A stretch of 57,531 bases of DNA from Candidatus Uhrbacteria bacterium (GTDB taxonomy: Bacteria > Patescibacteriota > Patescibacteriia > UBA9934), in contig CALRGN010000001.1 of the NCBI GenBank assembly GCA_943357745.1, positions 1-57,531 on the forward strand, in the 5' to 3' direction. The notes below the pieces were generated by a model. It did not search any database and was not told the origin of the DNA. It saw only the letters and a list, made by a program, of their open reading frames with translations. Each line of letters begins with the position of its first letter. Position 1 is the first letter of the stretch. This document shows positions 2,353 through 45,486 of the stretch, piece after piece. The translations under genes and the position numbers were made by a program.

Positions 2353-2377
2353 ATAAATTTTATAGGTAAAGTAGCCG

Positions 2378-2422
2378 ATGGTCAACTGTAATATGGTCAA
2401 TTGTAATATGATCAATTGTAAT
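2378..2422. repeat. Three tandem 15-bp repeats (atggtcaactgtaat / atggtcaattgtaat / atgatcaattgtaat)
   Basis: Read directly from the sequence. The repeats lie between the serS stop (2431) and the ftsQ-like start (2352). On the minus strand each unit contains TTGACC or TTGATC. Confidence 0.9.
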
Positions 2423-11428: not shown

Positions 11429-14374
11429 TTATCCCAGTTTAGCACTGGGGCAAATTTCATGGAAATCGCAGTTCCCACAAACTCTAACATCAGGCGTAGG
11501 CTCAAAAATACCGCGCTCAATTCCCTCCCCCAAGGCCCTGAAATCTTCTTCTAATCGTTCAAAATCAGAGGCTTTTGGCACAAAAGAGACGGTCTGCCCC
11601 CCAATAACATAATGATAGCTTAATCGCTCCACCGTTTTTGTTGGATACAATGCGTTCACGGCCATTGCATACAAAAGCAACTGCCGCTTATCCTTCCACC
11701 CCAGCTGTTCCTTTATTCCGCCCGTTTTATAATCAATCACCTCCACTCCACCGGAAGATAATTCGTCAATTCGATCAATCTTCCCTTGCAACTGAAATCC
11801 GGCAATCTGAAGATAGAACGGTTGTTCAAGTGCCAAAACTTGGGGCGGGTTAGCTTCCAATGAAATCAGAAACTTATTCAAAGCCTCAATCCCCTGCTCA
11901 AATCTTTGAACCCTCACTTCAACACTTGGGTACCAATCGCCAATAAACGCCCGTTCATACAACGGCCTCAAAGTTGACATCCCCGGCGTCACCGCTTCTC
12001 CACTGCGTAATAATTCCAGATAGTCATGTAGAGCGGCGTGTACGCTTTGACCAAAAGTCACCATTGGTTTCTGCCAACTTGGCACCCCAATCACATGAGC
12101 ATACCGATATTGTAGTGGGCAATTTTCAAAGGCCATTAGCTGAGAGAAACTTAACAAGACTGGTTCGGTTTTCGCTTGGGTTCCCACAAATGGAAAGCCT
12201 AGTGGATCATGGTTGGCTGGGGCTTTAACAGGATCAAGTAATTGATTTGCCCAACCCTCCGGAGCAACAACCGGGATTGTTTCCAATTCAATTCCCGCTT
12301 CATTAATAAACACTGATGGTCTTCTTGCTCTCACCCCTCCGTAACTACTGGCTCCAGTGATCATCAAACCCTGCTTAGCTCGGGTCATGGCCACATAAAA
12401 TAGCCGTCTTTCTTCCGACAAGTTTTTAATTCTAGCGTCTTCGCCACTCACCGGTAAATACCACTTCTCCCCCCGGCTATTCCCGGGAAATCTCTGTTCC
12501 ACTGCATTCACTATAAACACATATTCAAATTCCAATCCTTTTGCGGAATGTACGGTTAATAATTGGATTGCCTCTGGTGATGCTTGTAAGTCTTCAATGA
12601 TTGTCTCTTCACCCAACTCTTCAGCCGCTCTAATTTCCTCTAGAAAGTCTCGGAGACTTTTATCAAGCGCTCGTTTCTTCCAATCGTCAACCCGGCGTAA
12701 AAAACCGTTAAGCTTAGAAAAAATCAACATTTGTTCTACTTCCGGTAAAATAAGAACCTGAGTGATAATTCCGCTTTCTTTGAGAACTTTCAAAATAATC
12801 GCGGTGGGTTCATGAAGCTTCAACTCTTCCCGCCACTCATTAATCTTCGCAACTAACCGCGTGATTTTGTTAATCGCCTCTGGTGAAATTTCTTCACCAA
12901 CTCTATGGGTAAAGGAAGGTAAAAGAATTTTTTGGAGGACGGTCCAGATCGGACTAGCCTCTCGTTTGGCAATATGATTAATTACCACCGCTATTGTTTC
13001 TCCAACTCCGATTGTTTTATTAATAAGCAAACTAAAAACGCTTAAATTATGAAACGGTTCAATGATCACTCTTAAGGCCGCAATTAAATCCATTATCAGC
13101 GGTTCTCTTAGTAATTTATCTCCCCCTTGCGTGTATACTGGCCAACCAGATCTCTCTAGGGCAGTTTTAAAGGGGATTAAATGGTCGTGGGCTCTGGCAA
13201 GAATAGCAATTTCTTGCAACTGTACTCCACCCTTCAATAACTCATCAATTCTAGATCGTACCCACTCCACTTCTCCGTCACCACTCGGCAACATCCAAGC
13301 TTCCACCTGGGCGGAAATTGTGTTAGAAGTAGCGATCAACCGCTTATCAAGTTTTTCTATCACTTCTAGTCGGTTTGGATTATTTGATTGGATCAACTTG
13401 TAGGCTGAATCTAAAATCGCTTGACCACTCCGATAATTTTTCACCAAGGTCAAACTTTTTGCCTGAGGGTAGGCGGTTCTAAACTGCAAAATGTTGTCCA
13501 CCGTCGCTCCTCTAAAACCATAGATTGCTTGGTCATCATCCCCCACCACTAGCACACAGCCATCGGCGCCGGTTAATTCCTTTAGTAATTCAAATTGCAA
13601 CGGATTGGTATCTTGAAATTCATCAACCAAAAAATATCGGTATCTCTCTCGCACTAGCTTGCGTACACTTGGAACTTTCCTTAAAACATCCCTACTTTCC
13701 AGTAATAATCCGGCAAAATCCAAACACTGGGTTTCCCTAAGCATCAAGCTAAATTCATCCAAAGCACGCGCTAATTCTTCCCCTCTAAGAGTTGCGTCAA
13801 TTTTGGCCTCCGCATCCCCCTGCCAAAGATCAGTAAATTTTTTTGATTCAAGAAAATTGCGATAGCTTTCACCGGTAAAGCCCGCCTCTCTTAATCCACT
13901 AATTGCCCCATACAATTCCTTGATCAATTTTGGTGAAGGGCCACTTTCCAGAAATGGGGTCCAAAAACCAAACCTTAAAGAATGGCGTCTTAATAACAAC
14001 ATTGCGTCCGTCTCCGCTAGCCTCTGAAAATTACTCGCCCAACCCAAATGGAGGCCATATTCCCTTAGAAGATTCTCTGAAAACTTGTGGAAAGTATTCA
14101 CAGTAACCCCCCAAGTACCAAGCGGTAGAATACAATCCAATCGCTCCGCCATTTCCGTACTAGCTTTTTCGGTAAAAGTTAATGCCACAATCTCTTCCGG
14201 TTTGAAAGTTTTTTCTTGGATCAACCAAGCAATCCGTTCAGTAATCACGGTAGTTTTTCCGGTCCCAGCACCAGCAACCAGCAATAATTGATTAGATGCA
14301 AAGTGTACCGCCGCCAGCTGCTCTTGATTGAGCGGCATCTTTAAAGTCTCCGGAGCATTTATCTCATTCAACAT
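11429..14374 (-). CDS. UvrD/PcrA-type superfamily 1 helicase fused to a C-terminal PD-(D/E)XK (RecB/Cas4/AddB-like) nuclease domain with a four-Cys cluster
   Basis: Helicase motifs AGAGTGKT, DEFQD, GDDDQAIYGFRGA, NYRS, TVHSAKGLEFEYVF and YVAMTRAK. C-terminal FENCPLQY...GKIDRIDE...IDYKTG...QLLLYA...CGNCDFHEICP. Confidence 0.8.
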   Translation of the reverse strand: MLNEINAPETLKMPLNQEQLAAVHFASNQLLLVAGAGTGKTTVITERIAWLIQEKTFKPEEIVALTFTEKASTEMAERLDCILPLGTWGVTVNTFHKFSENLLREYGLHLGWASNFQRLAETDAMLLLRRHSLRFGFWTPFLESGPSPKLIKELYGAISGLREAGFTGESYRNFLESKKFTDLWQGDAEAKIDATLRGEELARALDEFSLMLRETQCLDFAGLLLESRDVLRKVPSVRKLVRERYRYFLVDEFQDTNPLQFELLKELTGADGCVLVVGDDDQAIYGFRGATVDNILQFRTAYPQAKSLTLVKNYRSGQAILDSAYKLIQSNNPNRLEVIEKLDKRLIATSNTISAQVEAWMLPSGDGEVEWVRSRIDELLKGGVQLQEIAILARAHDHLIPFKTALERSGWPVYTQGGDKLLREPLIMDLIAALRVIIEPFHNLSVFSLLINKTIGVGETIAVVINHIAKREASPIWTVLQKILLPSFTHRVGEEISPEAINKITRLVAKINEWREELKLHEPTAIILKVLKESGIITQVLILPEVEQMLIFSKLNGFLRRVDDWKKRALDKSLRDFLEEIRAAEELGEETIIEDLQASPEAIQLLTVHSAKGLEFEYVFIVNAVEQRFPGNSRGEKWYLPVSGEDARIKNLSEERRLFYVAMTRAKQGLMITGASSYGGVRARRPSVFINEAGIELETIPVVAPEGWANQLLDPVKAPANHDPLGFPFVGTQAKTEPVLLSFSQLMAFENCPLQYRYAHVIGVPSWQKPMVTFGQSVHAALHDYLELLRSGEAVTPGMSTLRPLYERAFIGDWYPSVEVRVQRFEQGIEALNKFLISLEANPPQVLALEQPFYLQIAGFQLQGKIDRIDELSSGGVEVIDYKTGGIKEQLGWKDKRQLLLYAMAVNALYPTKTVERLSYHYVIGGQTVSFVPKASDFERLEEDFRALGEGIERGIFEPTPDVRVCGNCDFHEICPSAKLG

Positions 14375-14385
14375 AATCCAAGCAA

Positions 14386-15972
14386 TTATAAATCACCTCG
14401 GCGCCAAATCAAACTCGCCAAAATCAATTCTAAATCTCCAACCTTTTCTCCTTCTGCCGCCAATGTTAACGCCGGTAAATTAAAACGCCCCGGAAAACCA
14501 TATTCAACTTGAATAATTTTCCCCTGCTCCACTTTCCACCAAGTAAAAACCGTACCAGCCGCTGTTTCTATCCCCGCCGCCGTTTCGCCACTAAGTGATC
14601 GCAATTTTTCCAAAACAGATTTGTCCCACGGTTCAGTTGGTTTTATCACTACCAGATTCTCTCTAATCAATCTTAATCCGTCCTTGATTTCATCAATCAT
14701 GATTTCAACTCTTGCTACTACATCTCCGTTTGTCCTGATAAAACGATGTGGCTTAATCACCGCAAACCCCACCTGAAGATCATCTCTCCTCGTATCAAAA
14801 TCTAAACCAACGGCCTTAGCAATCGGGCCCATTAAATTATATTCTAGCGCCTCAACTCTAGTAATAGATCCCAAGCCTTCTAATCTATCCTGCACCACTT
14901 CTCTATACCAACCCAACTTCAACAATCTATTAAAATCAACTTCGAATTCCTTCAATTTAACTTTAATCATTTTTAGTTCAGTTTCACCAACCGTAATATT
15001 CACCCCAAAAATAATTAGTGCCCCCAAACCAAATCTATTCCCACAAATTAAAAATAGCAGTTGTCTAATTGTTTCTATTAATTCTAGAGCTAATGCCACT
15101 AAACTAAAGATCCCCAGTGCCCGATAAATTTCCATAATCACCTCAAGAAATCTAGTTAGCCGTTCTAATTCCAAAAGAATCACTCGCCAGGCAATGGCAT
15201 CCCCAGATAGAAAATCCCTTTTCTCTATCAGTTGATTTTCAAACAATCTCTCCCACGCCTGGACAGTTGAAAGCGCCAAACTAATCGCCCGCAGTGGCTG
15301 TCTTCTCCCCTGAACTGCGAGCGCCTTATCTAACGACATGCCAATTATCAGCTCCTCTCTTTCTCTCGTCGGCAAATGTTGATCAAGTTTAACCGCTAAT
15401 ATTCTCCCACGGTTCCTCTGCAAAGGAACTTGTCCGTAATCTCTCCAAGGCGGATAACTCTCCAAACTTCTTTCTACCGGAACATTAGGAAACCGCTCTC
15501 CCAACAACTTGGGCCACATTCCAATTGGGTTAATCTCTAATCGATTTGCAACCGCCCGCTCCTCCCACCACGCCCCGGGAGAAACAGTAAAAATTCCTTC
15601 ATAACTCTGTCCCGATATCACCAAACTAGATAGTTTCACCAATTCGCCTGTCTCCGGATACAACAATAATACCGATAAGGTGCCCGTCGGCGCTTCTGTA
15701 AAGATTTTGACCAACTTCAATCCCCCTCCGGTCAATCCCCCACCGGTCAACCCCCCACCGGACCTGCCACCACCAGCCAGTCCGCTGACAGTAAGTCCGC
15801 CACCGATCAATTCACCGCCCACCAAACCACCATCGGTCAAAGTTCTACAATTAATCAATTCATCAACAACCTTGGTAAGTTTTGAAATTAAAACCTCCCC
15901 CACCCAAAATCCATTAGACCTAGAGGTAATTGTAACCCCAGTAAGAATTTGAATCAGTTCTGATACATTCAT
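14386..15972 (-). CDS. Highly divergent NuoC-NuoD fusion-like protein (complex I 30-kDa plus 49-kDa / group-4 hydrogenase large-subunit-like) lacking NiFe or quinone-site cysteines
   Basis: SPGAWWEERA resembles NuoC PAANWYEREA. WRVILLELERLTRFL, ICGNRFGLGALIIFGV, GLGSITRVEALEYNLMGPIAKAVGLDFDTRR, GDVVARVEIMIDEIKDGLRLIRENL and the C-terminal FPGRFNLPALT...DLELILASL parallel Thermus Nqo4 / E. coli NuoD blocks. Only 2 Cys in the protein. The ATG at 15972 forms an ATGA overlap with the upstream stop. Confidence 0.7.
   Translation of the reverse strand: MNVSELIQILTGVTITSRSNGFWVGEVLISKLTKVVDELINCRTLTDGGLVGGELIGGGLTVSGLAGGGRSGGGLTGGGLTGGGLKLVKIFTEAPTGTLSVLLLYPETGELVKLSSLVISGQSYEGIFTVSPGAWWEERAVANRLEINPIGMWPKLLGERFPNVPVERSLESYPPWRDYGQVPLQRNRGRILAVKLDQHLPTREREELIIGMSLDKALAVQGRRQPLRAISLALSTVQAWERLFENQLIEKRDFLSGDAIAWRVILLELERLTRFLEVIMEIYRALGIFSLVALALELIETIRQLLFLICGNRFGLGALIIFGVNITVGETELKMIKVKLKEFEVDFNRLLKLGWYREVVQDRLEGLGSITRVEALEYNLMGPIAKAVGLDFDTRRDDLQVGFAVIKPHRFIRTNGDVVARVEIMIDEIKDGLRLIRENLVVIKPTEPWDKSVLEKLRSLSGETAAGIETAAGTVFTWWKVEQGKIIQVEYGFPGRFNLPALTLAAEGEKVGDLELILASLIWRRGDL
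15718..15834 (-). repeat. In-frame G+C-rich tandem repeat encoding DGGLVGGELIGGGLTVSGLAGGGRSGGGLTGGGLTGGGL in the NuoC-like N-terminus
   Basis: Repeating ccaccggtcaa / cccccaccgg units on the plus strand and a GGGLT periodicity in the translation. Confidence 0.85.
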
Positions 15973-17390
15973 AGTCTCCACCACTCACTTGTGGTTAATG
16001 CCCCCATCAACCCAAAATCAAACCCGATCAAAAGCCAAAAAATAAAGGCATAAATTTTATTGGTTGATCTATCCTCATTGAATGATAGATGTTTCAGAGA
16101 TTTTTTTGGCGATTTATTTTTTGTAATCTCCCTAAACCAAGCCAGCAAAGATAATCTTAAAAAGTATAGCCAAATAATGGTCCAGATCCAAACCGCCCCA
16201 GCCGAAATTGTAATTCCGGTACCCCACCAAAGAATAATAATTAATCCTAGCAATGATCCTGGTAGGCCTAATTTACACCAAAGATAGGCGGTGCGCATTC
16301 TAGGATACTGCTTAGGATTATCAATCTTTACCAAAGAAATACCGGATTTAATCCAAAACCAATAAGCACCAATCAGTAACCATTCATGAAAGAAAATCAG
16401 AATCACAATTGGTGAAACCGCTCCGGTAATCAGAGCAAAGAGTGGCGCTAGCCCTAAACTAAGTGAGGCAATTCTAAGATCTAATCCGTAAAAGTTATCA
16501 CCATAAAAAATCTCTTCGCCCAAAACGGTTTTTTTGGTTTTATAATTGCGCCACGGTACTATGATGGTTACGGATAAAAATATTAGAAATGTGACCAGCG
16601 CAATAACTCTTAGGTGATCGGTGGGCCAACCCAGACTTCCTAACTTGGTCATTATTGCTAGCCACCAACTTATTAATGAGTATTGTAACCAAATCGGGAT
16701 AATAATTGAAATCCAGCGATTACTCCTTATCACACCAATTTCACTCCAAGTTGTGTATGGCCACCAGCCTAATTCCAACAAGATTCCTACCGATATTAAG
16801 ATCCAGGAAAGATCATTGGACCAAACTCCACCCAATGGCCAATAGATCGTCATCAATCCACCGCCAAGACACAAAAAAGCTACCATGTGCAATTTAAATG
16901 CTCGCCAAACAACCGCCATATCCATACCATCTCCGCCACGCGCGATCCCTTCCAAGCCACAGATAGCAATCAGTTGAACCAATAGAAATTTTGCAAGATC
17001 ATTTTCCAAAAAAGAACTAGTAATTAACCCGATTATCAAGACAAGCCAAATTAATTTTTCTCCCGTCATTTCACTATTCAATAATAACTTGCTTTGATAT
17101 TTGTTTGGATTAGAGACTGCCACTGATCCAATCATAGACAATCCAATCGCCACGAGCAGGAAGGCATAATCCCAACCATCTAAATTGATCTCTGGTAGAT
17201 TAAGTAACGTTGATAAAATAAATCTCCCCTCACCACTCCAAATAGCCACTCCAAGCTCAATCCCAATCAACAGCAACCCCACTTCCACCAAAAAAAGCCA
17301 CGGAATCCTGGCCGCTTTAACAGCGGGCAACGGCAACAGTCCCCAGACAATCGCCAGGAACAATAAAATTAAACCAAATATCATTAACAT
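15969..17390 (-). CDS. Polytopic membrane protein, possibly NuoL/M/N-MrpD antiporter-like subunit
   Basis: 473 aa with at least 12 predicted TM segments. A mid-membrane Glu (LIAICGLEGIA), GWWPYTTW and KLGLPGS stretches are reminiscent of the proton-conducting transporter family. Operon context. Confidence 0.4.
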   Translation of the reverse strand: MLMIFGLILLFLAIVWGLLPLPAVKAARIPWLFLVEVGLLLIGIELGVAIWSGEGRFILSTLLNLPEINLDGWDYAFLLVAIGLSMIGSVAVSNPNKYQSKLLLNSEMTGEKLIWLVLIIGLITSSFLENDLAKFLLVQLIAICGLEGIARGGDGMDMAVVWRAFKLHMVAFLCLGGGLMTIYWPLGGVWSNDLSWILISVGILLELGWWPYTTWSEIGVIRSNRWISIIIPIWLQYSLISWWLAIMTKLGSLGWPTDHLRVIALVTFLIFLSVTIIVPWRNYKTKKTVLGEEIFYGDNFYGLDLRIASLSLGLAPLFALITGAVSPIVILIFFHEWLLIGAYWFWIKSGISLVKIDNPKQYPRMRTAYLWCKLGLPGSLLGLIIILWWGTGITISAGAVWIWTIIWLYFLRLSLLAWFREITKNKSPKKSLKHLSFNEDRSTNKIYAFIFWLLIGFDFGLMGALTTSEWWRL

Positions 17391-17391
17391 A

Positions 17392-18033
17392 TTAGCGATC
17401 TATTTCAATTTCCGGATTAACGGAATCATAATTTAATTGATAGTGACAAATAGCATTCCAAAGCAACCACCAATGAATCAAACCTATCACTAATATGATC
17501 ATTTGCAAATAGTCTGATTCAGTTGATTTTAATCCAATGATCCCCACCAAACCCAACCAAAATACGCCAAACCCAATCCCCGCCTCTGCTCCGCGCCCCA
17601 CATAAAATCTTACCAACCCCACTACCGTAGCCAGGCTCGCCACCAACCACCACCAGTCAAAAAATTCTAAATTTTCTTTTGGAATTGACAACCCGTAGTA
17701 TCCAATCATCACCCCAATTAGAACAATTATAAATCGTTCCTCAAAATGTCGTTTGAATTGAGTTCTATATTTGATCAACCTTTTACCCCGTTTATCGTAG
17801 AATAGCTTGTAAAGGACGGTTATGCCCCAAATTAGATAGCATCCAAACATCAACACCATATTTAACCTTCCCTCGGTATTGATCACTTGCCAAATACCAA
17901 GAATTACAATCAAAGAGAGCAAACTATTTCCAAGCGGGATCGCCCTAGTCTTACTCATGAAGGAAAAGAGAAAAATGATTCCAACTACCGCTAACCACTC
18001 TCCATTGAATCCATAAAAAATTTCGTTTAGCAT
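17392..18033 (-). CDS. Small polytopic membrane protein of the Nuo-like operon
   Basis: 213 aa with about 6 TM segments, 1 nt from the next gene. No motif recognised. Confidence 0.35.
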   Translation of the reverse strand: MLNEIFYGFNGEWLAVVGIIFLFSFMSKTRAIPLGNSLLSLIVILGIWQVINTEGRLNMVLMFGCYLIWGITVLYKLFYDKRGKRLIKYRTQFKRHFEERFIIVLIGVMIGYYGLSIPKENLEFFDWWWLVASLATVVGLVRFYVGRGAEAGIGFGVFWLGLVGIIGLKSTESDYLQMIILVIGLIHWWLLWNAICHYQLNYDSVNPEIEIDR

Positions 18034-18068
18034 ATATTTTGCTTATATTCAGCCTACAGCCTTAATCT

Positions 18069-18953
18069 TTAATAAAAATTTGATAACCAAACCACTAGAG
18101 CTAATGTTTCCATCAGAGCAACAAATCCCAAGTACCGCCACAAAAAACCGGTATCGCGTTTGCAAGTAATTAATTCAAAAATTGCAAATATGAGCAGACC
18201 CAAACCTCCGGAAATAATAAGAGCGGATTGGCTCAGCCAATTGAGCTGACTGAGTATTAGAGAAATAAACAGATACCCGGCCAATGTGATCTGCATCCAC
18301 TCCCCCCACACTTGGCCACAGATTAACCAATTATAATCTTCTGAAATATGGTTGTCTAAAAAAAAGTCTTGCCGTTTTCTAAAGGGCGAACTGCCTAATA
18401 CAATTGGTAATAGAATCGCTCCAGAAATCCCAAGCAGAATTAAAGCGGTGCTTGTTTCCTGACTAAAGTCTGTTTGTATGATGGCGCCCCAATCACCAGA
18501 GACAAATAGGGATAGTAACCAAGCTCCAAAAAACCAGAACGGGGAGCTAACCCAAAACCGGAGCGATTGCTCATAATTATCATCCTTGATAAATTCCCCG
18601 GCTCGTAAAAGATTACTCCCCAGCATAAGTACCCACGCTAACCACCACCAACCAACCAAAGTCCAATAATCACCCCCAGGTAAAGCCGTATAATCCCAGT
18701 TATACCACGGTAGGCTTAAGAAAATTATAATTAAAGCTAAATTAGCTAAAATTATCATCCCGCCACTTACTCTCTCTTTTAGTGATAACCCTTTCCAACT
18801 AACAGTAATATTAAGGCTCCATCTGATTTGACTAAAACCGTGCCAAAGCAAATCGTGCAATAATTTACCAAATAACCCCACCGTAAAGACAATAAAAAGC
18901 CAGCCCAGCAATTGAACACTCCCAAGCACCAGCCACTTTAATACTTCAACCAT
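18069..18953 (-). CDS. Polytopic membrane protein, weakly NuoH/HycD-like
   Basis: SSPFRKRQDFFLDNHISEDYNWLICGQVWGEWMQITLAGYLFISLIL loosely parallels Nqo8 [37 protein letters not shown]. Start placed at the internal Met (18953). The ORF track start is 19004. Confidence 0.3.
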   Translation of the reverse strand: MVEVLKWLVLGSVQLLGWLFIVFTVGLFGKLLHDLLWHGFSQIRWSLNITVSWKGLSLKERVSGGMIILANLALIIIFLSLPWYNWDYTALPGGDYWTLVGWWWLAWVLMLGSNLLRAGEFIKDDNYEQSLRFWVSSPFWFFGAWLLSLFVSGDWGAIIQTDFSQETSTALILLGISGAILLPIVLGSSPFRKRQDFFLDNHISEDYNWLICGQVWGEWMQITLAGYLFISLILSQLNWLSQSALIISGGLGLLIFAIFELITCKRDTGFLWRYLGFVALMETLALVVWLSNFY

Positions 18954-20506
18954 AAAATTCCAGCAATTATCGCGAGTAAACAATAAAAAGGGACCAACGA
19001 CCAATCAAGTTTAGCGAGAACTTTTGTGCTATGGGTTTTAAATATTTTACAAAATTTATCAAAAAAATGATAAACCTTAAAATAAATCCACCCCCCTTTA
19101 AAACCGATGGCGTTAAAATTTTCTAACCAAAGCTCATTCCTTCCTGATTTCACTCCAATTAGTCCAAGATACCAGCCACCTAACATCCCAATTCCAAGTA
19201 GATACACCAATAATTGGCACCAAATCAGAATTATCATCGCTACGCCAATCCCATTAATTTCAAGGACGCCATCGGCCCAACTTCTCCAAATATCATCAGA
19301 TAAAAACAAATTTAATTGAATTTGGATAATTTTCCAACTTAGAGCTGTTGGCATAAACCAAAAGAATAAAATCACCAATCCAAAACCTCCAAGGAGAGTA
19401 GCGTTGCCCTTCCGCCACCAGCTGGAACACCACTGCCCACCCATTACCGTAAAAAGAAAAATTAGACTTATCCAAAGCGACTGCCTAATTCCTGACTCCG
19501 CCAACGGATTCAAGGCGGTAGCGGATAGCATCCCTTGAATAATTACGGTATTAAAAATAAAAAGTAACATCAAATCACTCCAACTTCTAACCCCCAAGTT
19601 GCGATAGTTCCTTAAGCGAGTCAACAAAACAGCAATTCCACCAACATTTAGAACAAGCACCGTTATAAGAAAGATTGGGGTATTGGCAGGGTTTAACCAA
19701 AAAAATATAATTCTAAAAATTAGATACAAGCTGGTTAGGATCTGAAGTATGCTCACCAGGTCAAACCCCCACTCATCAACAATCGGTTCATTTTCTTTGG
19801 CAGTGGTTTTCCCCCAGTCCCGGCTGATTGTTCTAAAATAACAACCCATCAAAATAGTCCCCACCAAGCAAACATTAAACCAATTAGTGAAACCAAACAA
19901 ACCCATATCAACCACCGCCACTTCTACAAATAGTCCACCGCTAAATACGGTTACCGTTGTAAATACAATTAAGACTGTAAAAATCAGCATCCAATCTTTA
20001 CCGGGGAGGACATGTTTTTCCGTCTGGCCTGCCAGAATCGACTGTGATCTCCACTCCATGATTGCTAAACCGAATAATAATAAAGCTAACATTATTATAT
20101 TTCCAGCCAATAAAAAACTATTCATCAAACCCAAATAGATCAAAGTCCATCCCCCCGACACTCTCATTGACCCGTTGTTTTTCTCTTTCCACCTCTGAAG
20201 CTGATGGAACAAAAAACTGAGCGAACTAATCCCCAAAAAATGTCCGGCAAATCTATCCAGATGCCAGTTCATACCAAACATAACCGGATTGAAAACTCCC
20301 CATTGGTAGGGCCAAATCAAGCCATCATTCCCACCAAAAACCACTATCACAGAAACAATTATTCCTAAAACCGCACTTAGTATCACAATCCTTCCACTCC
20401 AACCTCCTCTTCGGCCGTACTCCAATCCTAACCCAAGCCACGGCAATCCTATTACTCCTATCAGCAAACAACCAAGTAATAGGTCATTCATAAATATTAA
20501 TTTCAA
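18938..20506 (-). CDS. Polytopic membrane protein, possibly NuoL/MrpA antiporter-like subunit
   Basis: 522 aa with many TM segments. WHLDRFAGHFLGISSLSFLF...LLAGNIIMLALLLFGLAIMEW resembles the N-terminal D.lS..f...WE region of Nuo L/M/N. ATGA overlap with the NuoB-like gene. Confidence 0.4.
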   Translation of the reverse strand: MKLIFMNDLLLGCLLIGVIGLPWLGLGLEYGRRGGWSGRIVILSAVLGIIVSVIVVFGGNDGLIWPYQWGVFNPVMFGMNWHLDRFAGHFLGISSLSFLFHQLQRWKEKNNGSMRVSGGWTLIYLGLMNSFLLAGNIIMLALLLFGLAIMEWRSQSILAGQTEKHVLPGKDWMLIFTVLIVFTTVTVFSGGLFVEVAVVDMGLFGFTNWFNVCLVGTILMGCYFRTISRDWGKTTAKENEPIVDEWGFDLVSILQILTSLYLIFRIIFFWLNPANTPIFLITVLVLNVGGIAVLLTRLRNYRNLGVRSWSDLMLLFIFNTVIIQGMLSATALNPLAESGIRQSLWISLIFLFTVMGGQWCSSWWRKGNATLLGGFGLVILFFWFMPTALSWKIIQIQLNLFLSDDIWRSWADGVLEINGIGVAMIILIWCQLLVYLLGIGMLGGWYLGLIGVKSGRNELWLENFNAIGFKGGWIYFKVYHFFDKFCKIFKTHSTKVLAKLDWSLVPFYCLLAIIAGILWLKY

Positions 20507-21048
20507 ACGCGTCTAATTAATTGAGCTAGTTCATTTGGGCCTTCCTCACCAATCATCCAATTTACAGGGATAAGCTTAATTTTAAAATCAGCCGATATTC
20601 CACCGATTCTTTCCTCCTCCCGCTTCACCTTAGCGGCCTCGCTTTCAGCATCCTCCATCCCCCATTTCACTTCACTCTCAATCCCAACTGGCAGATCATT
20701 GTCTGAAGGCTTGATCCAAATCACCTTCAATTCACTCTCACCGCCCCATCTACTTTTCAATCTTCCTAAAACCGCCTGCAGTTGATCCCAATCAAAACCA
20801 ACCAAAATCCAAATCTGAGCCAATTCCGGTTTAGAGACAAATTTAATGCGCTCTGGCAAATGGGCGTATTCAATTCCGTATAACGCGCGGAGTTCTTGTC
20901 CAAATGCCTCCCCACCTACTGCAATTTCCGTATAGATACAAATTCTAGCGTCTCTAAAAAAATCCGCCCAAACCTTCATTGGCCCCCGTTTTGCAATTCT
21001 CTTCCAAGCTAACCACCAAGTAAGATAGATAAGCTTCAACCAGGTCAT
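20503..21048 (-). CDS. NuoB / Nqo6 / MbhJ-like small subunit homologue lacking the [4Fe-4S] cysteine ligands
   Basis: VWADFFRDARICIYTEI, YGIEY, SKPELAQIWILVGFDWDQL, ELKVIWI and IKLIPVNWMIGEEGPNELAQLI are colinear with Nqo6 LWPATFGLACCAIEM, ...RFG, SPRQADVMIVAGRLSKKM, PKWVISM and VDVYVPGCPPRPEALIYAV. Only one Cys in 181 aa. Confidence 0.55.
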   Translation of the reverse strand: MTWLKLIYLTWWLAWKRIAKRGPMKVWADFFRDARICIYTEIAVGGEAFGQELRALYGIEYAHLPERIKFVSKPELAQIWILVGFDWDQLQAVLGRLKSRWGGESELKVIWIKPSDNDLPVGIESEVKWGMEDAESEAAKVKREEERIGGISADFKIKLIPVNWMIGEEGPNELAQLIRRV

Positions 21049-21175
21049 ATAATTTCCTGAAGTTTACAGGCTAAAAACCAATTCGGTCAACTGTATCCTC
21101 AGATTTTTTTGTCAAACCCAAACAAAACCAAAATTTTCAACAGTCCCCACCCAAGGCCTACAAGCGTTAAAATTT

Positions 21176-22639
21176 ATGCTATGCTTTAACCCTATGAATC
21201 CATCAAATACACCCCATAATTTAGATAAATCAACCAATCCTGACTCAACCCCAAAGCCAGGGGAATCTCCTTCCAACCGCGTCCCTTCAACTCCAATCGC
21301 GCCCTCCACTCCATTAAAAACCACCCCCCTTTCTATGGCCGAAAAAAATCCCGGGCTGTTGATTGCCAGTATTCTAGGAGTGGTTTTGCTAGCATTAGTC
21401 ACCATGCTCACCATTAACATTAGCAAGAATGTTAATAGCAATGATGGCGATACTGTTGATCCTCGGCAAACAAATAATCAAATCAGACTCAACACCAACA
21501 ATGACCGCGATGCCAGTCAATCCAGCACCAAAACCAGCACCGATAAAAACAAATTTCAAGATCCCGATCAAAATTCCGTCAGTCCCAAATCTTTGAGCGG
21601 TGCGCTTATCAAAAGAACAGTGCCCAATGCTCAATCATCAAAAGCGATTTGCAACGACGGTACTGATTACACCTATTACACTCGCCCGGGGAGTCCGGAA
21701 AATTCCGATAGATGGATTGTGTATTTTCAAGGTGGCGCGGCTTGCAGTTCTGTGGACGCTTGCACTTCCCGTGCCGAGGAAGATCCTGATCTTATTACGG
21801 CGGACACTCAGGCTAGTCGTCTCTCAGACGGAATCCTTTCCAGGGACGAGTCTCATAACCCGGATTTCAATGATTGGAGCCATGTCTTTCTCCCCTATTG
21901 CAGTTCAGATACATGGGCAGGTGATACCACCCACCAAATTGCCAGCGACACTTGGTATTTCTACGGCCACCATATAGTTACAGCCGTGGTGGACGAACTT
22001 TTAAACGGGGTAGGCGACATGCCCAAGTTAAGTGATTCTACTGATCTGATGGTGGTGGGCAGTTCAGCTGGAGGTGGTGGTGTTCAGCTGAATTTAGATC
22101 GAATCTCTGAAACCGTCCATGCTGTTGATTCAGCTGTCAGGATTACCGGCGTACTCGATAGCGTTTGGGGTTTCCTCGTTGAACCATACGCTAGTCGAGA
22201 AGATGCTTATGGAAATGTGCTGTCAGAAGGAGAAGCGATCGAATTCCACAACACCATTGGCGATCAAAGTTGTGAAGCCGCCTCTTCTGCCAACGATGAC
22301 GGCTGTAAAAGTACTGACACCCTGTTGCCGTACTTGAGTACTCCCGTTTTTATTTATATCGATCAGCGGGATAGTTTAAAACTTTCCCGAGTGGGGATTG
22401 ATAATATGGGTAAGGATCCAGCTCAACGTGCCTATTGGGAGGAAACATGGCAACCAAATTTACTCGCTTCGCTTGAAGGTCTTACTGGACTTTTTGCACC
22501 AGTGATCGGAAAGCATACATCCTTAACCAGCGATCGTTTCTACACCGTAAAAATAGACGGCCTTAACTTTGCTGATGTGTTAGGCAACTGGTATTTTGAT
22601 CGATCAGGCCCCAAATCTGTCATTGCAGAACAACCTTAA
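21176..22639 (+). CDS. Membrane-anchored pectin acetylesterase / Notum-like (PAE family) carbohydrate esterase
   Basis: CNDGTDYTYY..WIVYFQGGAACSS, GILS...NPDF.DWSHVFLPYCSSDTWAGD, YFYGHHIV and GSSAGGGG (GxSxG) are colinear with plant PAE motifs. A Pro/Ser/Thr-rich N-terminal region is followed by one TM. The true start is uncertain (21176, 21194 or 21335). Confidence 0.6.
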   Translation: MLCFNPMNPSNTPHNLDKSTNPDSTPKPGESPSNRVPSTPIAPSTPLKTTPLSMAEKNPGLLIASILGVVLLALVTMLTINISKNVNSNDGDTVDPRQTNNQIRLNTNNDRDASQSSTKTSTDKNKFQDPDQNSVSPKSLSGALIKRTVPNAQSSKAICNDGTDYTYYTRPGSPENSDRWIVYFQGGAACSSVDACTSRAEEDPDLITADTQASRLSDGILSRDESHNPDFNDWSHVFLPYCSSDTWAGDTTHQIASDTWYFYGHHIVTAVVDELLNGVGDMPKLSDSTDLMVVGSSAGGGGVQLNLDRISETVHAVDSAVRITGVLDSVWGFLVEPYASREDAYGNVLSEGEAIEFHNTIGDQSCEAASSANDDGCKSTDTLLPYLSTPVFIYIDQRDSLKLSRVGIDNMGKDPAQRAYWEETWQPNLLASLEGLTGLFAPVIGKHTSLTSDRFYTVKIDGLNFADVLGNWYFDRSGPKSVIAEQP

Positions 22640-27054: not shown

Positions 27055-27918
27055 ATGACGGAAATTATTCGCGGTCGCTTGCTAGCAAAAAACATTTTAG
27101 AAAAAACCAAGGCCCGTCTCCCCGCTCCACCGCCAGGTAGAACCACTCCCGCTAATCCTCCCGGCCTAGGTGTAATCCTAATTGGCGCCGATCCCGCTTC
27201 CACTTTATATGTCAAGCTAAAAACTCAAGCCGCCAAAGAAGTGGGGCTATATGTGGAAATCGTAAATTTTGATAAATCGGTGGATCAAAAACTTGTTCTC
27301 ACTAAAATTGCCGAGTGGAATCTTCGCACCGATATCAACGGCATCTTAGTACAATTCCCCGTGCCTAAAGAATTTGATGGCGATCTACTAGTCAAAGCGA
27401 TTCACCCCAATAAAGATGTGGACGGTTTCCATCCCGAGAATCGAGCCGCGCTCTTAAACGGCAAAGCTAATTTAGTGCCACCGGTAGCGCTAGCAATCAT
27501 GCGCCTAATTCAAGCCACCCATCTACCGCTCACCAATAAACATGCCTTGATCATTTCAAAGAGCACGGTTTTTGCTGAACCGTTAATTGAATTAATGAAA
27601 GAGGCCGGGCTAGTGGGCAGTAGAATCTCACCACGTTCCGCCACTCTCAAGCCCCAGGCACAATCCGCCGATCTCATTGTGGTCGCCGTCGGGAAGGCCG
27701 GTTTTTTGACCAAAGAGCTCGTCAAACCAGGGGCAATTATCATTGATGTTGGTACCAACCGAGAAAACGGCAAAGTAGTAGGAGACACTGCCCCAGACGC
27801 CGCCGCTCTGGCCGCCTTCATCTCCCCCGTTCCCGGCGGCGTTGGTCCTCTCACCGTGGCCTATTTAGTTTTGAATGTGATTAGAGCCCAAGAAAAACAA
27901 ACCAATCAATTAAAATAA
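27055..27918 (+). CDS. folD: Bifunctional methylenetetrahydrofolate dehydrogenase / methenyl-THF cyclohydrolase
   Basis: YVKLK, GILVQFPVPK, DVDGFHP and PVPGGVGPLTVA motifs. Confidence 0.9.
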   Translation: MTEIIRGRLLAKNILEKTKARLPAPPPGRTTPANPPGLGVILIGADPASTLYVKLKTQAAKEVGLYVEIVNFDKSVDQKLVLTKIAEWNLRTDINGILVQFPVPKEFDGDLLVKAIHPNKDVDGFHPENRAALLNGKANLVPPVALAIMRLIQATHLPLTNKHALIISKSTVFAEPLIELMKEAGLVGSRISPRSATLKPQAQSADLIVVAVGKAGFLTKELVKPGAIIIDVGTNRENGKVVGDTAPDAAALAAFISPVPGGVGPLTVAYLVLNVIRAQEKQTNQLK

Positions 27919-29270
27919 GCTAGATCCATACCCCTCACTAGCTGCCTAATAAACTCATCCAAGCCACCAACGATCATAAATATAAACAATCCGCCCGCCG
28001 CGATTCGCCAACCTCTTCCCACTACCGCTTCTCTAGCACTCCAAACCCCATTTTTCGCCGCCGCACCGTGCGCTAAGACCAGCAATAACCCAATCAAACC
28101 ACCAAAAATACCAGCGGTAACAACAATTACTGTGTGTATTGGGATAAGAGTTTGAGCCACCAAAAACGGCGGGAGCAAACTAAGCGCCATAGACTCCCAA
28201 AACCGCAATTTAAAATCCTTCATCAGAGACTCTTGCAAATTCATGGCATTCGCCACCGCCGCATTAATAATCACTAAGCCCACAAATCCTAAGGCGATTT
28301 TTGCAATTATTGGGGACCAAAGATAATTCACCCCCAAAATTGCTAGCTCCGGCGTTAAGGAACCAAACAATCTAATCATCGCAATAATAAAAAGAAAGTA
28401 AATCGCCGTCGTAATTCCATAGCCCAGCCAAACCGCCCGTTTGGCCACCGCGATCTTTCCCGATACCGCAACCAACAGTTCCGGCGCACTCGGCAAGCCA
28501 AAAAACGCAAATAACCACAAGGTAAATACCGGGGTTAAGGCGGAAAATGGAAGCAAGAACTGGGAAAATAACCTCCAAAAAACAGCTGTCAAACCTTCAA
28601 AACCAGACTGCCAACCTTCCCATGACAAAGCACCGGCAATTGGCTGTAATTCGGCGGGATCATGAATTAAACCCATAACCACAAGAACGATTAACAATAA
28701 CATCAGCAACGGCCACAAAATTCGTCTAAAATAATTTACTCCAGCCGAACCCAGCAAAAATAAACCAGTAATCACTAAAAAACCTAAGCTAATTCCCACC
28801 CTACTCGACATTGCATCCAAACCAACCGTTCCAATATCCATTACTCCCCCATTTATCACTCTAAAAAACATCGGGATCACTTGCAAATAAGCAACAATCG
28901 CTCCCCAAATAAAAATGAGCCAAGCCCCCACCCCCAAATACCCCGCCACTGGTCCTAAATGACCCTCAATTAAGCCAAAAAATCGTTTATCGCCCACTAT
29001 TCCGCCTGCCTGCCCCCGCTTACCGCCCGTTGAATTTCCGTCTCTATCGCCCCTGTCACTGCTGGTCAAATCAAGCCACATCAAAAGCGTATGAAGGCTG
29101 ATCAATCCGATTATCACCCCACTCCCAAGCCCCCACCACCAACCGCTCATCACCACCGCCGCCGGCAGTAACAACCAACCTACTCCCACTGCAATACTTA
29201 CCACTTCCCCCGCCCCACGCAATTCACTTTTATCAAAGTTAAACATACCCCCAAAGTATACACCGTTCAT
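27906..29270 (-). CDS. Amino-acid permease-like polytopic membrane protein (AAAP / Trp-Tyr permease-like)
   Basis: About 11 TM segments. The N-terminal SIAVGVGWLLLPAAVVMSGWWWGLGSGVIIGLIS resembles the Aa_trans signature. A charged Gly-rich insert (SSDRGDRDGNSTGGKRGQAGG) follows TM2. Confidence 0.4.
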   Translation of the reverse strand: MNGVYFGGMFNFDKSELRGAGEVVSIAVGVGWLLLPAAVVMSGWWWGLGSGVIIGLISLHTLLMWLDLTSSDRGDRDGNSTGGKRGQAGGIVGDKRFFGLIEGHLGPVAGYLGVGAWLIFIWGAIVAYLQVIPMFFRVINGGVMDIGTVGLDAMSSRVGISLGFLVITGLFLLGSAGVNYFRRILWPLLMLLLIVLVVMGLIHDPAELQPIAGALSWEGWQSGFEGLTAVFWRLFSQFLLPFSALTPVFTLWLFAFFGLPSAPELLVAVSGKIAVAKRAVWLGYGITTAIYFLFIIAMIRLFGSLTPELAILGVNYLWSPIIAKIALGFVGLVIINAAVANAMNLQESLMKDFKLRFWESMALSLLPPFLVAQTLIPIHTVIVVTAGIFGGLIGLLLVLAHGAAAKNGVWSAREAVVGRGWRIAAGGLFIFMIVGGLDEFIRQLVRGMDLAYFN

Positions 29271-32479: not shown

Positions 32480-33109
32480 CTAGTAGTCGGAGCGACGGTG
32501 GCTCGGTTTGGCGGCCGTTCCGGTCCCACCTTTCAATGCTTCCTCCTTATCCAAAGCCTCTTTGCGGAGGCGTTGATTTACCAGCGCCTGATTCCAGCGG
32601 GCATCCGAATTGGCTTTCTCGGTCTCTCTTGACCGCGCCGCCAATCGGCGCGCTAGACTTTCGGCTGCCCTCGCCCGAACTTCGGCCATTTGAGCCAAAC
32701 GGTCATCCTCCTTGCAACGAATCTGCCCCAGCCAGATCAACCGATCGTAGACTACCTGCGCCGCCGGACGGTCCGTAAGCTGGCGCCCGTACTCGTTAAT
32801 ATAGTCACCACGCAACTCCACCCGCTGGCCATTGAAAAGGAGGGTACCGTGATTGAAGTCGGACGACAGGTTCATCGCCTCTAGGATCGCCTCGACCCAA
32901 TTGAGCCAATATTGGACCGGTTTATTCCGTGTCAACAAGTCAGCGAGCAAGAGCAGGAGGGTTTCTTTAAGCTCCTCCTGTGCCTCAGTCGGCGGCGCAA
33001 AGCGCTGTACCCGTTCAATCATCATTTGAGTTGGACGGGTCACAGCTGTGACACTTCGGGGGGGATTGTGCGCGGGTGAACCGAACACGAGGGGGGTAAC
33101 AAGTCTCAT
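32480..33109 (-). CDS. Orphan hypothetical protein (209 aa), G+C-rich cassette B
   Basis: GAGGTG lies 7 nt upstream of the ATG. 38/60 G+C in line 32581-32640. Own promoter and terminator. The C-terminal third is Arg/Ala/Glu-rich and helical. No recognisable domain. Confidence 0.55.
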   Translation of the reverse strand: MRLVTPLVFGSPAHNPPRSVTAVTRPTQMMIERVQRFAPPTEAQEELKETLLLLLADLLTRNKPVQYWLNWVEAILEAMNLSSDFNHGTLLFNGQRVELRGDYINEYGRQLTDRPAAQVVYDRLIWLGQIRCKEDDRLAQMAEVRARAAESLARRLAARSRETEKANSDARWNQALVNQRLRKEALDKEEALKGGTGTAAKPSHRRSDY

Positions 33110-39005: not shown

Positions 39006-39027
39006 GCAATCTCCCTTGTGGGCAATA

Positions 39028-39056
39028 ACCCTATCAGAAAATCCAATAAATAGCAA
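39028..39056 (-). promoter_or_regulatory. Candidate promoter for cassette C (TTGCTA - 17 nt - TAGGGT)
   Basis: Hexamers read on the minus strand. The region overlaps the divergent bcp promoter (TGcTATAAT at 39061-39069). Confidence 0.3.
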
Positions 39057-45483: not shown

Positions 45484-45486
45484 AAA

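Follow-up and report, generated by a model that had tools for sequence, protein, structure and literature searches.

A six-gene Ehr-type operon in a groundwater Patescibacteria genome: a putative redox-dead, hyper-diverged membrane complex

Can a relative of complex I and the group 4 [NiFe]-hydrogenases be retained once its redox cofactors are gone and most of its subunits have become unrecognisable? The question is raised by a six-gene membrane-complex operon in a Patescibacteria MAG from Hainich groundwater, located in a stretch of 57,531 nucleotides (the window). A sequence-only reading had placed six tightly packed, co-directional minus-strand ORFs among housekeeping genes. The setting, a reduced Patescibacteria genome, and the coordinates are borne out, and an independent gene caller returned the same six minus-strand ORFs on the public contig (W1–W6 in the order of transcription, Table 1). 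At the junctions, the ATGA overlap at 15969–15972, the 16-nt overlap at 18938–18953 and two gaps, one of 35 nt and one of 1 nt, were found as described, but the supposed ATGA at 20503–20506 is TTGA, and the second gene may start at either of two codons. Ahead of W1, a sigma-70-like site (TTGACC-18-TAAACT, 21090–21061) and an AGGAAA Shine–Dalgarno-like element before the ATG were recognised solely by their fit to the consensus, and promoter-like sites in the upstream region do not outnumber the shuffled expectation. A UvrD–PDDEXK gene begins 11 nt past W6.

Table 1. Coordinates of the operon genes and associated features in the window
Feature	Position	Strand	Description	Basis
W1	20503..21048	-	181 aa, soluble; EhrS (NuoB/hydrogenase small subunit) position	ORF, synteny
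W2	18938..20506	-	517 aa (ATG 20491) or 522 aa (TTG 20506), polytopic; EhrA (NuoL/HyfB-like) position	
W3	18069..18953	-	294 aa (longest ORF reaches 19004, 311 aa), polytopic; EhrB (NuoH-like) position	
W4	17392..18033	-	213 aa, ~6 TM; EhrC (HyfE-like) position	
W5	15969..17390	-	473 aa, polytopic, 14 predicted long helices; EhrD (NuoM/N/HyfF-like) position	
W6	14386..15972	-	528 aa; EhrL, NuoC-NuoD fusion, group-4 large-subunit family	profile HMMs
15-nt tandem repeat, 3 copies	15717..15761	-	encodes GGGLT repeats of the W6 Gly-rich insert	
Upstream intergenic region	21049..21175	-	common to W1 and a divergently transcribed PAE-like gene	
UvrD-helicase + PDDEXK nuclease	11429..14374	-	981 aa; synteny landmark, not a subunit	Pfam

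One recognisable subunit and five orphans

The interpretation of the last ORF as a NuoC–NuoD fusion is well supported. W6 matches PF00346 in Pfam (4e-20), the Ehr-family CD HMM (E=1.4e-47) and, by hhalign, the Ehr CD family (5.5e-34, residues 104–521), and its PDB matches include MbhL (6cfw_L, 4.4e-9, the best solved relative), MbsL and Nqo4 (2fug_4, 1.2e-8); NCBIfam NuoD models match far below every equivalog cut-off. By these matches, W6 is without ambiguity a homologue of the Ehr/group-4 large subunit, with 25–29% identity overall and about 26% to canonical Patescibacteria Ehr. In the alignment, the NuoC ERE-type motif region is kept and a Gly-rich insert appears in the NuoC part, while three conserved elements are missing: the N-terminal beta segment of NuoD, GEGVxEIPVGPVHAGxIEPGHFRF, and the two Ehr motifs of canonical Patescibacteria, ERxSGDxxxGH and NKSFNLSYSGNDL. 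Because all Ehr clades are about equally far from W6 (74–92 bits) and its clade-signature residues are not enriched for Patescibacteria (5/33, versus 4/20 for another clade), descent from the Patescibacteria clade lacks phylogenetic demonstration.

The profile searches that identified W6 left the other five proteins undetected, whether by Pfam, NCBIfam, custom Ehr-family HMMs (30–73 members per matching Ehr subunit family) or hhalign. W1 has a sole database relative, 97% identical and annotated 'hypothetical protein [Patescibacteria group bacterium]', and the hhalign comparison of W1 with the B family (P=0.087) was equalled by 20 of 300 shuffles. For W2, hhalign against the L family gave P=0.008 over 104 N-terminal columns; an exhaustive phmmer scan of 1.84e9 proteins returned nothing beyond W2 itself, and neither W2 nor W5 had a match in the PDB. 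W4 offers a single sequence hint, a marginal match to the NCBIfam MrpC model (E=0.065), and no window protein matched the MrpA/D (PF00361) profiles. At family-invariant columns, W1–W5 match no more often than shuffled or reversed sequences do, and no residual paralogy was found between W2 and W5 (canonical L and M subunits share 31% identity, E=2e-28). Earlier suggestions that the first ORF is colinear with NuoB, that two proteins of about 500 aa resemble NuoL/M/N-Mrp subunits and that one of about 300 aa has a weak NuoH-like stretch therefore find no support in these searches, the by-eye likeness being no better than shuffled controls. AF2 models of W1 and W5 were both of low confidence (pLDDT 44 and 48) and uninformative. 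The single-sequence W5 model has 14 helices and its Foldseek output was meaningless; W1 has a hydrophobic or amphipathic N-terminal helix, and its model has a predicted beta-alpha-beta-beta-alpha-beta order compatible with, but not diagnostic of, a NuoB-like fold. Against the reading preferred below, no statistical sequence evidence ties W1–W5 to the Ehr subunit families.

The hydropathy profiles of W2–W5 are collinear with those of the families expected at their positions, segment-permuted controls scoring as well in 1, 1, 0 and 0 of 60 cases, respectively. W2 follows positions 4–556 of 678 of family L and is shorter than canonical EhrA by about 120–140 C-terminal residues, W3 follows the full H profile (4–294 vs 1–312) and W5 the full M profile. 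W4 scores 0.83, as true family members do (0.81–0.93); canonical EhrC (x) subunits match PF00420 in 8 of 10 cases as well as MbhG (6cfw_G), their C-terminal half being NuoK/MrpC/MbhG-like. The Ehr assignment of W1–W5 can be shown neither by sequence nor by the low-confidence models, and rests on synteny, gene sizes and this collinearity.

Comparison with Ehr operons and related complexes

This set of six genes also makes up the canonical Ehr operons of 80 reference genomes. The B-first order, with which the position of W1 agrees, occurs in Patescibacteria (loci L039, L040, L042 and L086–L088) and in some Chloroflexota, Actinomycetota and Rokubacteria. The subunits measure 181/517/294/213/473/528 aa in the window and 178/660/311/215/492/512 aa in L086. 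Together with the homology of W6 and the topology, this order and these sizes uphold the proposal of an Ehr-type operon related to complex I and group-4 hydrogenases. The closest known systems are those of the Patescibacteria (CPR) Ehr clade, for example Kaiserbacteria CP066682.1 (L087) and Patescibacteria H51-bin007_1 (L086/L040), which share with the window the phylum-level group, the groundwater habitat (Hainich well H51), the six positions in order and near-equal lengths. The large subunit of this clade was described by Jaffe et al. 2020 (PMC7304191). A UvrD–PDDEXK family gene (27% identity over 882 aa, E=2e-73) also follows the canonical operon in L086/L040 and a PDDEXK fragment follows it in L087; the downstream-helicase synteny holds in just one or two of five Patescibacteria loci examined. 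Genes for DnaG and sigma-70, upstream on the same strand, adjoin the operon in L039, L040 and L087 but lie 23 kb away here. Canonical Patescibacteria Ehr subunits are 39–70% identical between genera (L086 vs L087), with clear PF01058, PF00361 and PF00146 matches that the window lacks; no identity of W1–W5 to the subunits of either locus can be detected, and the window proteins contain 3- to 7-fold more Trp.

The window is not alone in its cofactor-less state. The cysteine counts given previously hold: W1 has one (C37) and W6 two (C42 and C310). None falls in a ligand column, where W6 has QRIR in place of the S/A-T/S-S-G of Ehr and the CCCC of true hydrogenases, and neither a NiFe site nor an N2-type cluster could be ligated. 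The loss of Fe-S ligands from the NuoB homologue had been put forward as novel to this locus; it is in fact fixed in a large, well-conserved Patescibacteria Ehr clade, the four cysteines being absent, with T/N/S-E-G-D instead, in 120 of the 120 closest EhrS/NuoB proteins, and it occurs sporadically outside that clade. The absence of NiFe cysteines from CPR Ehr large subunits was reported in 2020 (Jaffe et al. 2020, PMC7304191). Further, the absence of NuoI, NuoE/F/G, ferredoxin, hyp and quinone genes, claimed for the adjacent genes, extends across the annotation of the whole window, and none of these lies beside canonical Patescibacteria Ehr operons. Outside the 57.5-kb window, the genome may encode a partner enzyme, or a canonical Ehr complex as a second copy.

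Ehr operons of other phyla resemble the window in having NuoL-, NuoH-, HyfE-, NuoM/N-, NuoCD- and NuoB-like subunits and a large subunit without CxxC NiFe motifs. However, the small subunit retains all four [4Fe-4S] cysteines in 72 of 79 operons, and most of the 79 have the order L-H-x-M-CD-B. With the group 4 [NiFe]-hydrogenases (Hyf/Hyc formate hydrogenlyase and Mbh; PDB 7z0s, 6cfw), the window has in common a homologous large subunit and the overall modular plan, in which a peripheral arm sits on a membrane arm of Mrp type, but it lacks the NiFe ligands, proximal cluster, NuoI/HycF-type ferredoxin subunit and hyp genes. W6 also recalls complex I (NuoA–N) in its NuoD profile matches, its Nqo4 match and its NuoC ERE-type region, whereas the N2 cluster, the Q-site beta1-beta2 loop, the N-module, NuoI, A and J are missing. 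Mrp-type antiporters resemble the window through the marginal W4 match, and canonical EhrC through its C-terminal half; they have MrpB/E/F/G but no NuoB, NuoCD or NuoH homologues.

Purifying selection and the competing explanations

The six-gene operon is under purifying selection. Between the window and a second assembly from a different study (L085, 96–98% nucleotide identity), the six genes give a pN/pS of 0.17 (P=5e-19), and the five orphans among them 0.185 (P=1.6e-14), values resembling those of murB and murC, and no frame disruption was found. Housekeeping genes of the window are 27–53% identical to their relatives (sigma-70 48%, DnaG 36% and helicase 27% against L086). They can be recognised and five Ehr subunits cannot, and by this comparison the hyper-divergence is operon-specific and particular to this locus. 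We consider it fairly probable that the locus is a redox-dead, still-functional derivative of a six-gene Patescibacteria Ehr operon that has hyper-diverged.

The main competitor is non-orthologous replacement, wherein the NuoCD-like gene alone derives from Ehr and the other five, encoding one soluble and four membrane proteins, are unrelated lineage-specific orphans; they would form a different membrane complex that recruited or kept the NuoCD-like protein as a soluble subunit. The silence of every sequence method on W1–W5, invariant columns and the missing W2/W5 paralogy included, speaks for this explanation. The composition is very unusual (Trp 4.7–7.5%, with 6.1% in W1 and 7.5% in W3, and depleted His), and with at least seven further orphan ORFs in the window, such genes are no rarity in this genome. 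It would, however, require five unrelated genes to match EhrS-A-B-C-D by coincidence in number, order, lengths, soluble/membrane pattern and hydropathy, and in placement relative to the UvrD–PDDEXK gene. W6, with its low identity and lost motifs, trends equally to extreme divergence and is a plausible half-way stage. We consider replacement unlikely.

A decaying relic, useless after cofactor loss and drifting under relaxed constraint to pseudogenisation, would account for the acceleration of the operon relative to housekeeping genes, the disappearance of signature motifs, N-terminal NuoD segment and invariant residues, and the slippage-prone repeat within W6. Yet all six ORFs are intact across 6.6 kb with their translational-coupling junctions preserved, and the low pN/pS speaks for constraint. 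Moreover, canonical cofactor-less Patescibacteria Ehr is highly conserved, with identities of 62% or more in at least 120 clusters, so that losing the cofactors does not by itself remove constraint. We regard decay as improbable.

It is likewise improbable that the complex is coupled to redox chemistry, hydrogen or ferredoxin through non-cysteine ligands or a cofactor-bearing partner encoded elsewhere. FDH–Ehr complexes have been proposed in Margulisbacteria and Saganbacteria, and docking of Ehr onto separate oxidoreductases is suspected in other phyla (PMC6349859). The view of the genome is limited to 57.5 kb, and a Pyr_redox_2 flavoprotein gene lies 27 kb from the operon. W1 and W6 nevertheless have no cysteine at a ligand position, His is depleted, the NuoB–NuoD interface segment is deleted from W6, and the usual partner genes are missing here and near canonical Patescibacteria Ehr. 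In the architecture of complex I and MBH, without a cluster at the NuoB position, no wire is known to us that would link a docked partner with the membrane interface. Spurious ORFs from misassembly, a wrong genetic code or a wrong frame, which five consecutive orphans of odd composition, with a coding strand rich in G+T and a high Trp content, might suggest, are effectively refuted by the two independent assemblies and the concentration of substitutions at synonymous sites of the annotated frames, with TGA serving as stop at gene ends and neighbouring housekeeping genes reading normally under table 11.

A possible history and function

As a redox-dead Ehr derivative, the locus would descend from an EhrS-A-B-C-D-L operon (NuoB-like, NuoL-like, NuoH-like, HyfE/NuoK-like, NuoM/N-like and a NuoC–NuoD fusion) in the B-first order common among Patescibacteria. 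The NiFe ligands and the four [4Fe-4S] cysteines would have been lost earlier, in the Patescibacteria clade. A later burst of accelerated divergence, affecting the whole operon in this lineage only, may then have erased recognisable sequence in five subunits and stripped W6 of its beta segment and Ehr signature motifs, while subunit number, order, length and transmembrane topology survived. Since the six genes appear to be expressed as one translationally coupled unit and are under purifying selection, their products probably still assemble as an L-shaped, redox-inert membrane complex.

With no electron-accepting cofactor, any work would have to be driven by an ion gradient or ligand binding. 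Of the earlier proposal of a redox-dead ion-translocating module, the first part stands; ion translocation is weakened by the depletion of His and by the buried Lys/Glu/His, which are invariant in antiporter-, NuoH- and NuoK-like families and kept in canonical Patescibacteria Ehr, but whose retention in the window proteins is not demonstrable at aligned columns. Among the well-understood members of the complex-I superfamily, to our knowledge only the Mrp antiporter does without redox chemistry, and it offers a functional analogy for the cofactor-less Ehr membrane arm. Our best guess, weaker for the window than for canonical Patescibacteria Ehr with its traceable buried charges, is that the complex may carry out a secondary, Mrp-like cation/proton exchange or act as a gated ion leak, with the NuoB and NuoCD remnants serving as a structural or regulatory cap.

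Layout of the operon and its recognisable subunit

The region at 14386-21048 holds six co-directional genes on the minus strand, designated W1 to W6 in transcription order, and an independent gene caller returned the identical six on a public contig (ENA ERZ27280310 k141_46689, 57.9 kb). The closely packed junctions described in the sequence-only reading are as claimed except at 20503-20506, which reads TTGA rather than ATGA; W2 starts either at the TTG there or at the ATG at 20491. The window comes from a Patescibacteria MAG. A metagenome scan for relatives returned a single copy of the operon, with 96-98% nucleotide identity, from a Hainich groundwater metagenome (well H51), and nothing else.

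Features of the operon and of the surrounding window
Feature	Coordinates	Strand	Length	Assignment or remark
W1	20503-21048	-	181 aa	EhrS (NuoB-like) position
W2	18938-20491/20506	-	517/522 aa	EhrA (NuoL-like) position
W3	18069-18953	-	294 aa	EhrB (NuoH-like) position
W4	17392-18033	-	213 aa	EhrC (HyfE/NuoK-like) position
W5	15969-17390	-	473 aa	EhrD (NuoM/N-like) position
W6	14386-15972	-	528 aa	EhrL (NuoC-NuoD fusion) position
Tandem repeat	15717-15761		15 nt, 3 copies	93% matches; encodes GGGLT repeats of the W6 Gly-rich insert
Pectin-acetylesterase-family protein	21176-22639	+	487 aa	PF03283; divergent from operon
DnaG + sigma-70	44056-47358	-		
Oxidoreductase	48023-49411	-	462 aa	Pyr_redox_2 + Pyr_redox_dim; 27 kb from operon
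Orphan ORF	1465-2415	-		
Orphan ORF	27906-29270	-		
Orphan ORF	32480-33109	-		
Orphan ORF	38412-39056	-		
Orphan ORF	40071-40946	-		
Orphan ORF	49428-51044	-		
Orphan ORF	53211-53783	-		

Among the six products, only W6 is recognisable by its sequence. Its earlier assignment as a NuoC-NuoD fusion held up, with matches to PF00346 (4e-20) and to an HMM of 59 NuoC-NuoD (CD) proteins of the energy-converting hydrogenase-related (Ehr) type (E = 1.4e-47). In hhalign (5.5e-34), residues 104-521 align with profile positions 73-516, the ERE region of NuoC included. Matches to the NuoD, FpoD and NdhH models of NCBIfam fall far under the cut-offs (47-80 bits for the NuoD equivalogs against cut-offs of 360-1156). 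A word-indexed search of 5.8 billion clusters brought up, beyond W6 itself or near-identical copies, 13 distantly related NuoC-NuoD fusions (25-29% identity); the Gly-rich low-complexity stretch of W6 may have saturated this search. The closest solved relatives are MbhL, MbsL and Nqo4. W6 lies at the same distance from every Ehr clade, and a test of signature residues for placing it in the Patescibacteria clade did not discriminate (5/33 versus 4/20 for another clade).

The predicted cysteine counts of the two peripheral-arm subunits, one in W1 and two in W6, were borne out. The NiFe-ligand columns of W6 are occupied by Q, R, I and R, and both of its cysteines (C42 and C310) lie elsewhere. The Ehr motifs ERxSGDxxxGH and NKSFNLSYSGNDL, kept in the CD proteins of about 65 of 84 fetched comparison loci, are lost in W6, where the window reads GRRQPLRAISL and ILASLIWRRGDL. 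Missing from W6 is the conserved beta segment at the N-terminus of NuoD, and the NuoC-like part holds a Gly-rich insert of about 45 residues.

Identity of the five remaining subunits

Searches of Pfam, NCBIfam, PHROGs and PADLOC gave nothing credible for W1-W5. HMMs of the Ehr subunit families B, L, H, x, M and CD (EhrS, A, B, C, D and L, respectively), drawn from 80 reference-genome loci, matched none of the five, the sole match of the six custom models being that of CD to W6. The scan that collected the reference-genome loci used motif patterns absent from W6 itself, so close relatives could not be recovered by it. Further, phmmer searches of the PDB with W2 and W5 found no match, and only self or near-identical copies were returned for W2 when all 1.84 billion representatives were scanned with HMMER and for W1 in a word-indexed search. 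The hhalign comparisons were marginal, with P = 0.008 for W2 against L and P = 0.087 for W1 against B, the latter score being equalled by 20 of 300 shuffles. A paralogy test between W2 and W5 was negative; canonical L and M, from the ordinary, recognisable Ehr operons, are clear paralogues (E = 2e-28). AlphaFold2 models of W1 (two sequences, pLDDT 44) and W5 (single sequence, pLDDT 48, 14 predicted helices) were set aside, their Foldseek matches in the PDB being meaningless.

The sequence-only reading had also likened W1 to NuoB and W2 and W5 to antiporter-like subunits, and had seen a weak NuoH-like stretch in W3. These by-eye homologies are not evidence, because shuffled or reversed W1-W5 match the invariant columns of the families no less often than the real sequences. 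Sequence tests of W2, W3 and W5 gave no significant hit, and the hhalign score of W1 does not rise above its shuffles. A MAFFT alignment of W1 with NuoB, attractive by eye, was rejected on the same grounds.

The case for the five proteins lies in their position. The distant NuoCD relatives of W6 sit in six-gene operons of the form NuoB (PF01058)-PF00361-NuoH (PF00146)-protein of about 215 aa-PF00361-NuoCD, the set named EhrA-D, L and S in Geobacter. Among the fetched loci (80 from reference genomes and three from metagenomes), most have the order L-H-x-M-CD-B and a minority, including all Patescibacteria examples, place B first. The B-L-H-x-M-CD pattern of the window, with no NuoI, is the same as in L002-4, L039, L040, L042 and L086-88. 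Compared with L086, from Patescibacteria H51-bin007_1, the soluble/membrane pattern of the six subunits is the same and the lengths are 181/517/294/213/473/528 aa in the window versus 178/660/311/215/492/512 aa. W1 agrees with EhrS only in position, size (181 versus 172-178 aa), solubility and order of secondary structure, its AlphaFold2 model having a pLDDT of 44.

Crude Kyte-Doolittle counts of transmembrane segments proved too noisy, and hydropathy was instead compared by profile alignment with permutation controls. W2-W5 are collinear, end to end, with the hydropathy profiles of their positional families; segment-permuted controls scored as well in 1/60 cases for W2 and W3 and in 0/60 for W4 and W5. 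The score of W4 falls inside the range of true family members, and W2 is without the last ~120 positions of the L profile. The single weak database match of W4, to MrpC (E = 0.065), agrees with the C-terminal half of the canonical x subunit, which is NuoK/MrpC/MbhG-like, and thus gives a weak independent hint.

The flanks point in the same direction. The canonical operon of L086/L040, a locus from the same Hainich well, is directly followed by a UvrD+PDDEXK gene of about 988 aa, which shares 27% identity over 882 aa with the gene starting 11 nt past W6; this helicase synteny is clear in one other genome and partial in a second. Upstream of the Ehr operon, DnaG and sigma-70 are encoded in L086/L040 (L086:6699-9789) and in Kaiserbacteria CP066682.1 (L087, 4011-7096), and sigma-70 in L039 (1237-1995). 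The DnaG and sigma-70 genes of the window share the operon's strand but are 23 kb upstream of it, a distance that points to an insertion or rearrangement in between. From gene order, lengths, hydropathy, the x-subunit hint and the flanks, we think that W1-W6 are all Ehr subunits by position.

Next to the operon, the divergent PF03283 gene is among the few plus-strand genes nearby. It encodes a long low-complexity N-terminus rich in Ser, Pro, Thr and Asn, and at its 3' end it runs 4 nt into the end of murC.

Cofactor loss in the clade and divergence of the window operon

Ehr complexes, which are related to complex I and to energy-converting hydrogenases, occur widely. Jaffe et al. 2020 (PMC7304191) described CPR Ehr large subunits without NiFe cysteines. 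Among the fetched loci, the NiFe-ligand columns read CCCC in true hydrogenases and S/A-T/S-S-G in Ehr, the latter residues being embedded in ERxSGDxxxGH and NKSFNLSYSGNDL. That large subunits without NiFe cysteines share these replacement motifs implies a conserved non-NiFe site.

In the small subunit, all four cluster cysteines are kept in 72 of 79 operons. W1 has a single cysteine (C37) and none of the CxxC...C...C-P-P ligands of the proximal [4Fe-4S] cluster. Such a loss in a NuoB homologue had been put forward as new at this locus, a claim that did not survive. All Patescibacteria examples among the fetched loci are without the small-subunit cluster cysteines. Further, a search seeded with the L040 EhrS protein (L040:3707-4240) gave a best 120 clusters (P0017-P0136, at least 62% identity) whose named members are Kaiserbacteria, Parcubacteria, Minisyncoccota or Patescibacteria; the four ligand columns read T/N/S-E-G-D in 120/120, and 102/120 contain at most one cysteine. 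The loss is not peculiar to the window, because all of these best 120 clusters are without ligand cysteines, and the conserved replacements suggest a new, selected role for the former cluster pocket. Cysteines of the small subunit are also lost in Thermoleophilia (L026, TCDGD), Methanosarcinales (L057, DPDGN) and Planctomycetales (L080, NEEGW) MAGs; with their differing replacement residues, these look like independent losses. Judged from the ligand columns, full cofactor loss is conserved across a large clade of Patescibacteria Ehr, which keeps essentially all invariant buried Lys, Glu and His of the L, H, x and M families. No description of a cluster-less Ehr small subunit was found in the openly searchable literature.

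The window operon has diverged well beyond this clade. Sigma-70 is 48-53% identical between the window and L086/L087 (78% between L086 and L087), DnaG 34-36% (50%), and the helicase 27% between the window and L086 (not comparable between L086 and L087). The Ehr subunits are 39-70% identical between L086 and L087; in the window W6 reaches ~26% and the other five are undetectable. As sigma-70 and DnaG bracket the rates of the Ehr subunits in the L086-L087 comparison, about 30-45% identity would be expected between window and canonical subunits. By these identities, the excess divergence is confined to the Ehr operon. W1-W5 are His-poor and contain 4.7-7.5% Trp (canonical subunits 0-2%; other membrane proteins of the window 0.5-3.6%), and the AT skew of their region (15969-21048), at 0.17-0.20, is the window's most extreme.

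Despite this divergence, there is no decay in the six genes. Compared with the second assembly, they give a pN/pS of 0.17 together (P = 5e-19), and the five orphans one of 0.185 (P = 1.6e-14), similar to murB and murC, and no frame is disrupted between the two assemblies. Misassembly or recoding as the source of the ORFs was considered and rejected on the second assembly and the pN/pS pattern.

This genome is rich in orphan genes: the window holds seven more ORFs of 190-538 aa, all encoded by the minus strand, for which Pfam gives no match at E ≤ 0.001. The pyridine-nucleotide-disulphide oxidoreductase that adjoins the 538-aa orphan is the only obvious redox enzyme of the window. Because GC skew is negative in every 2-kb window but the first (cumulative -5.96) and the minus strand carries ~80% of ORFs of at least 150 aa, the contig probably lies within one replichore.

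With Ehr complexes, W6 shares homology to the NuoD/group 4 large subunit, a NuoC-like domain and the lack of the NiFe CxxC pair, and the window shares a six-gene operon without NuoI in one of two conserved orders; the two replacement motifs set W6 apart. Group 4 [NiFe]-hydrogenases differ in having the four NiFe cysteines and the proximal [4Fe-4S] ligands, and neither hyp maturation genes nor the endopeptidase occur in the 57.5-kb window. Respiratory complex I differs in its N2 ligands, its Q-site beta1-beta2 loop, the NuoD N-terminal beta segment and NuoI/E/F/G, the reported absence of which was confirmed by gene annotation of the 57.5 kb. Apart from the marginal MrpC match of W4, no PF00361 or Mrp model matches in the window, and Mrp antiporters are without a peripheral arm whereas the window has a NuoCD homologue, so that the likeness is one of functional analogy. 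The window locus is probably an extreme variant of an already cofactor-less Patescibacteria Ehr; the sequence-only reading is confirmed in part as to what was observed and supported in part as to its interpretation.

A possible complex-I scaffold without redox chemistry

The operon joins a NuoCD-family protein that has no metal ligands to five further proteins of Ehr-like order, size and topology, all five under purifying selection, and the 57.5 kb of housekeeping context hold no gene for a redox partner. The six products probably come together as a redox-inert membrane complex of the complex-I type. Without electron input, such a complex could be driven only by an ion gradient or by ligand binding, and the nearest precedent in the superfamily would be secondary cation/proton exchange of the Mrp type. 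By this analogy, ion exchange would be a reasonable function for the canonical Patescibacteria Ehr, because the buried charges are kept. It would be a weaker one for the window, because these charges are untraceable and His is depleted.

A more far-reaching reading, held tentatively and with more doubt than confidence, is that Patescibacteria Ehr would be a cofactor-free complex-I-type machine, a conformational device driven by a gradient or a ligand, and that the window lineage would have re-engineered this device, rebuilding all but the NuoCD core while keeping architecture and selection. The rebuilt form would be Trp-rich and His-poor, with EhrA shortened and the NuoB-NuoD interface remodelled. 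If true, this would amount to a new, non-proton-relay function for the complex-I scaffold.

The window locus alone proves little; of value is the cofactor-less state across the clade, taken together with a hyper-diverged but constrained derivative. Operons of this kind would be invisible to HMM-based metabolic annotation, which is a warning. If the reading is true, the Patescibacteria clade has lost the last, small-subunit cluster, and its scaffold must work without electron transfer, because the Fe-S cluster is gone and the membrane-arm charges are otherwise intact. The window would then be a natural experiment on which scaffold features are dispensable, with architecture and selection kept and identity erased. 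This would bear on how peripheral-arm events are coupled to ion movement in complex-I-type machines and on the handling of ion gradients by ultra-small bacteria that lack respiration. Collectively, the clade and the window make the role of a complex-I scaffold without redox chemistry concretely testable.
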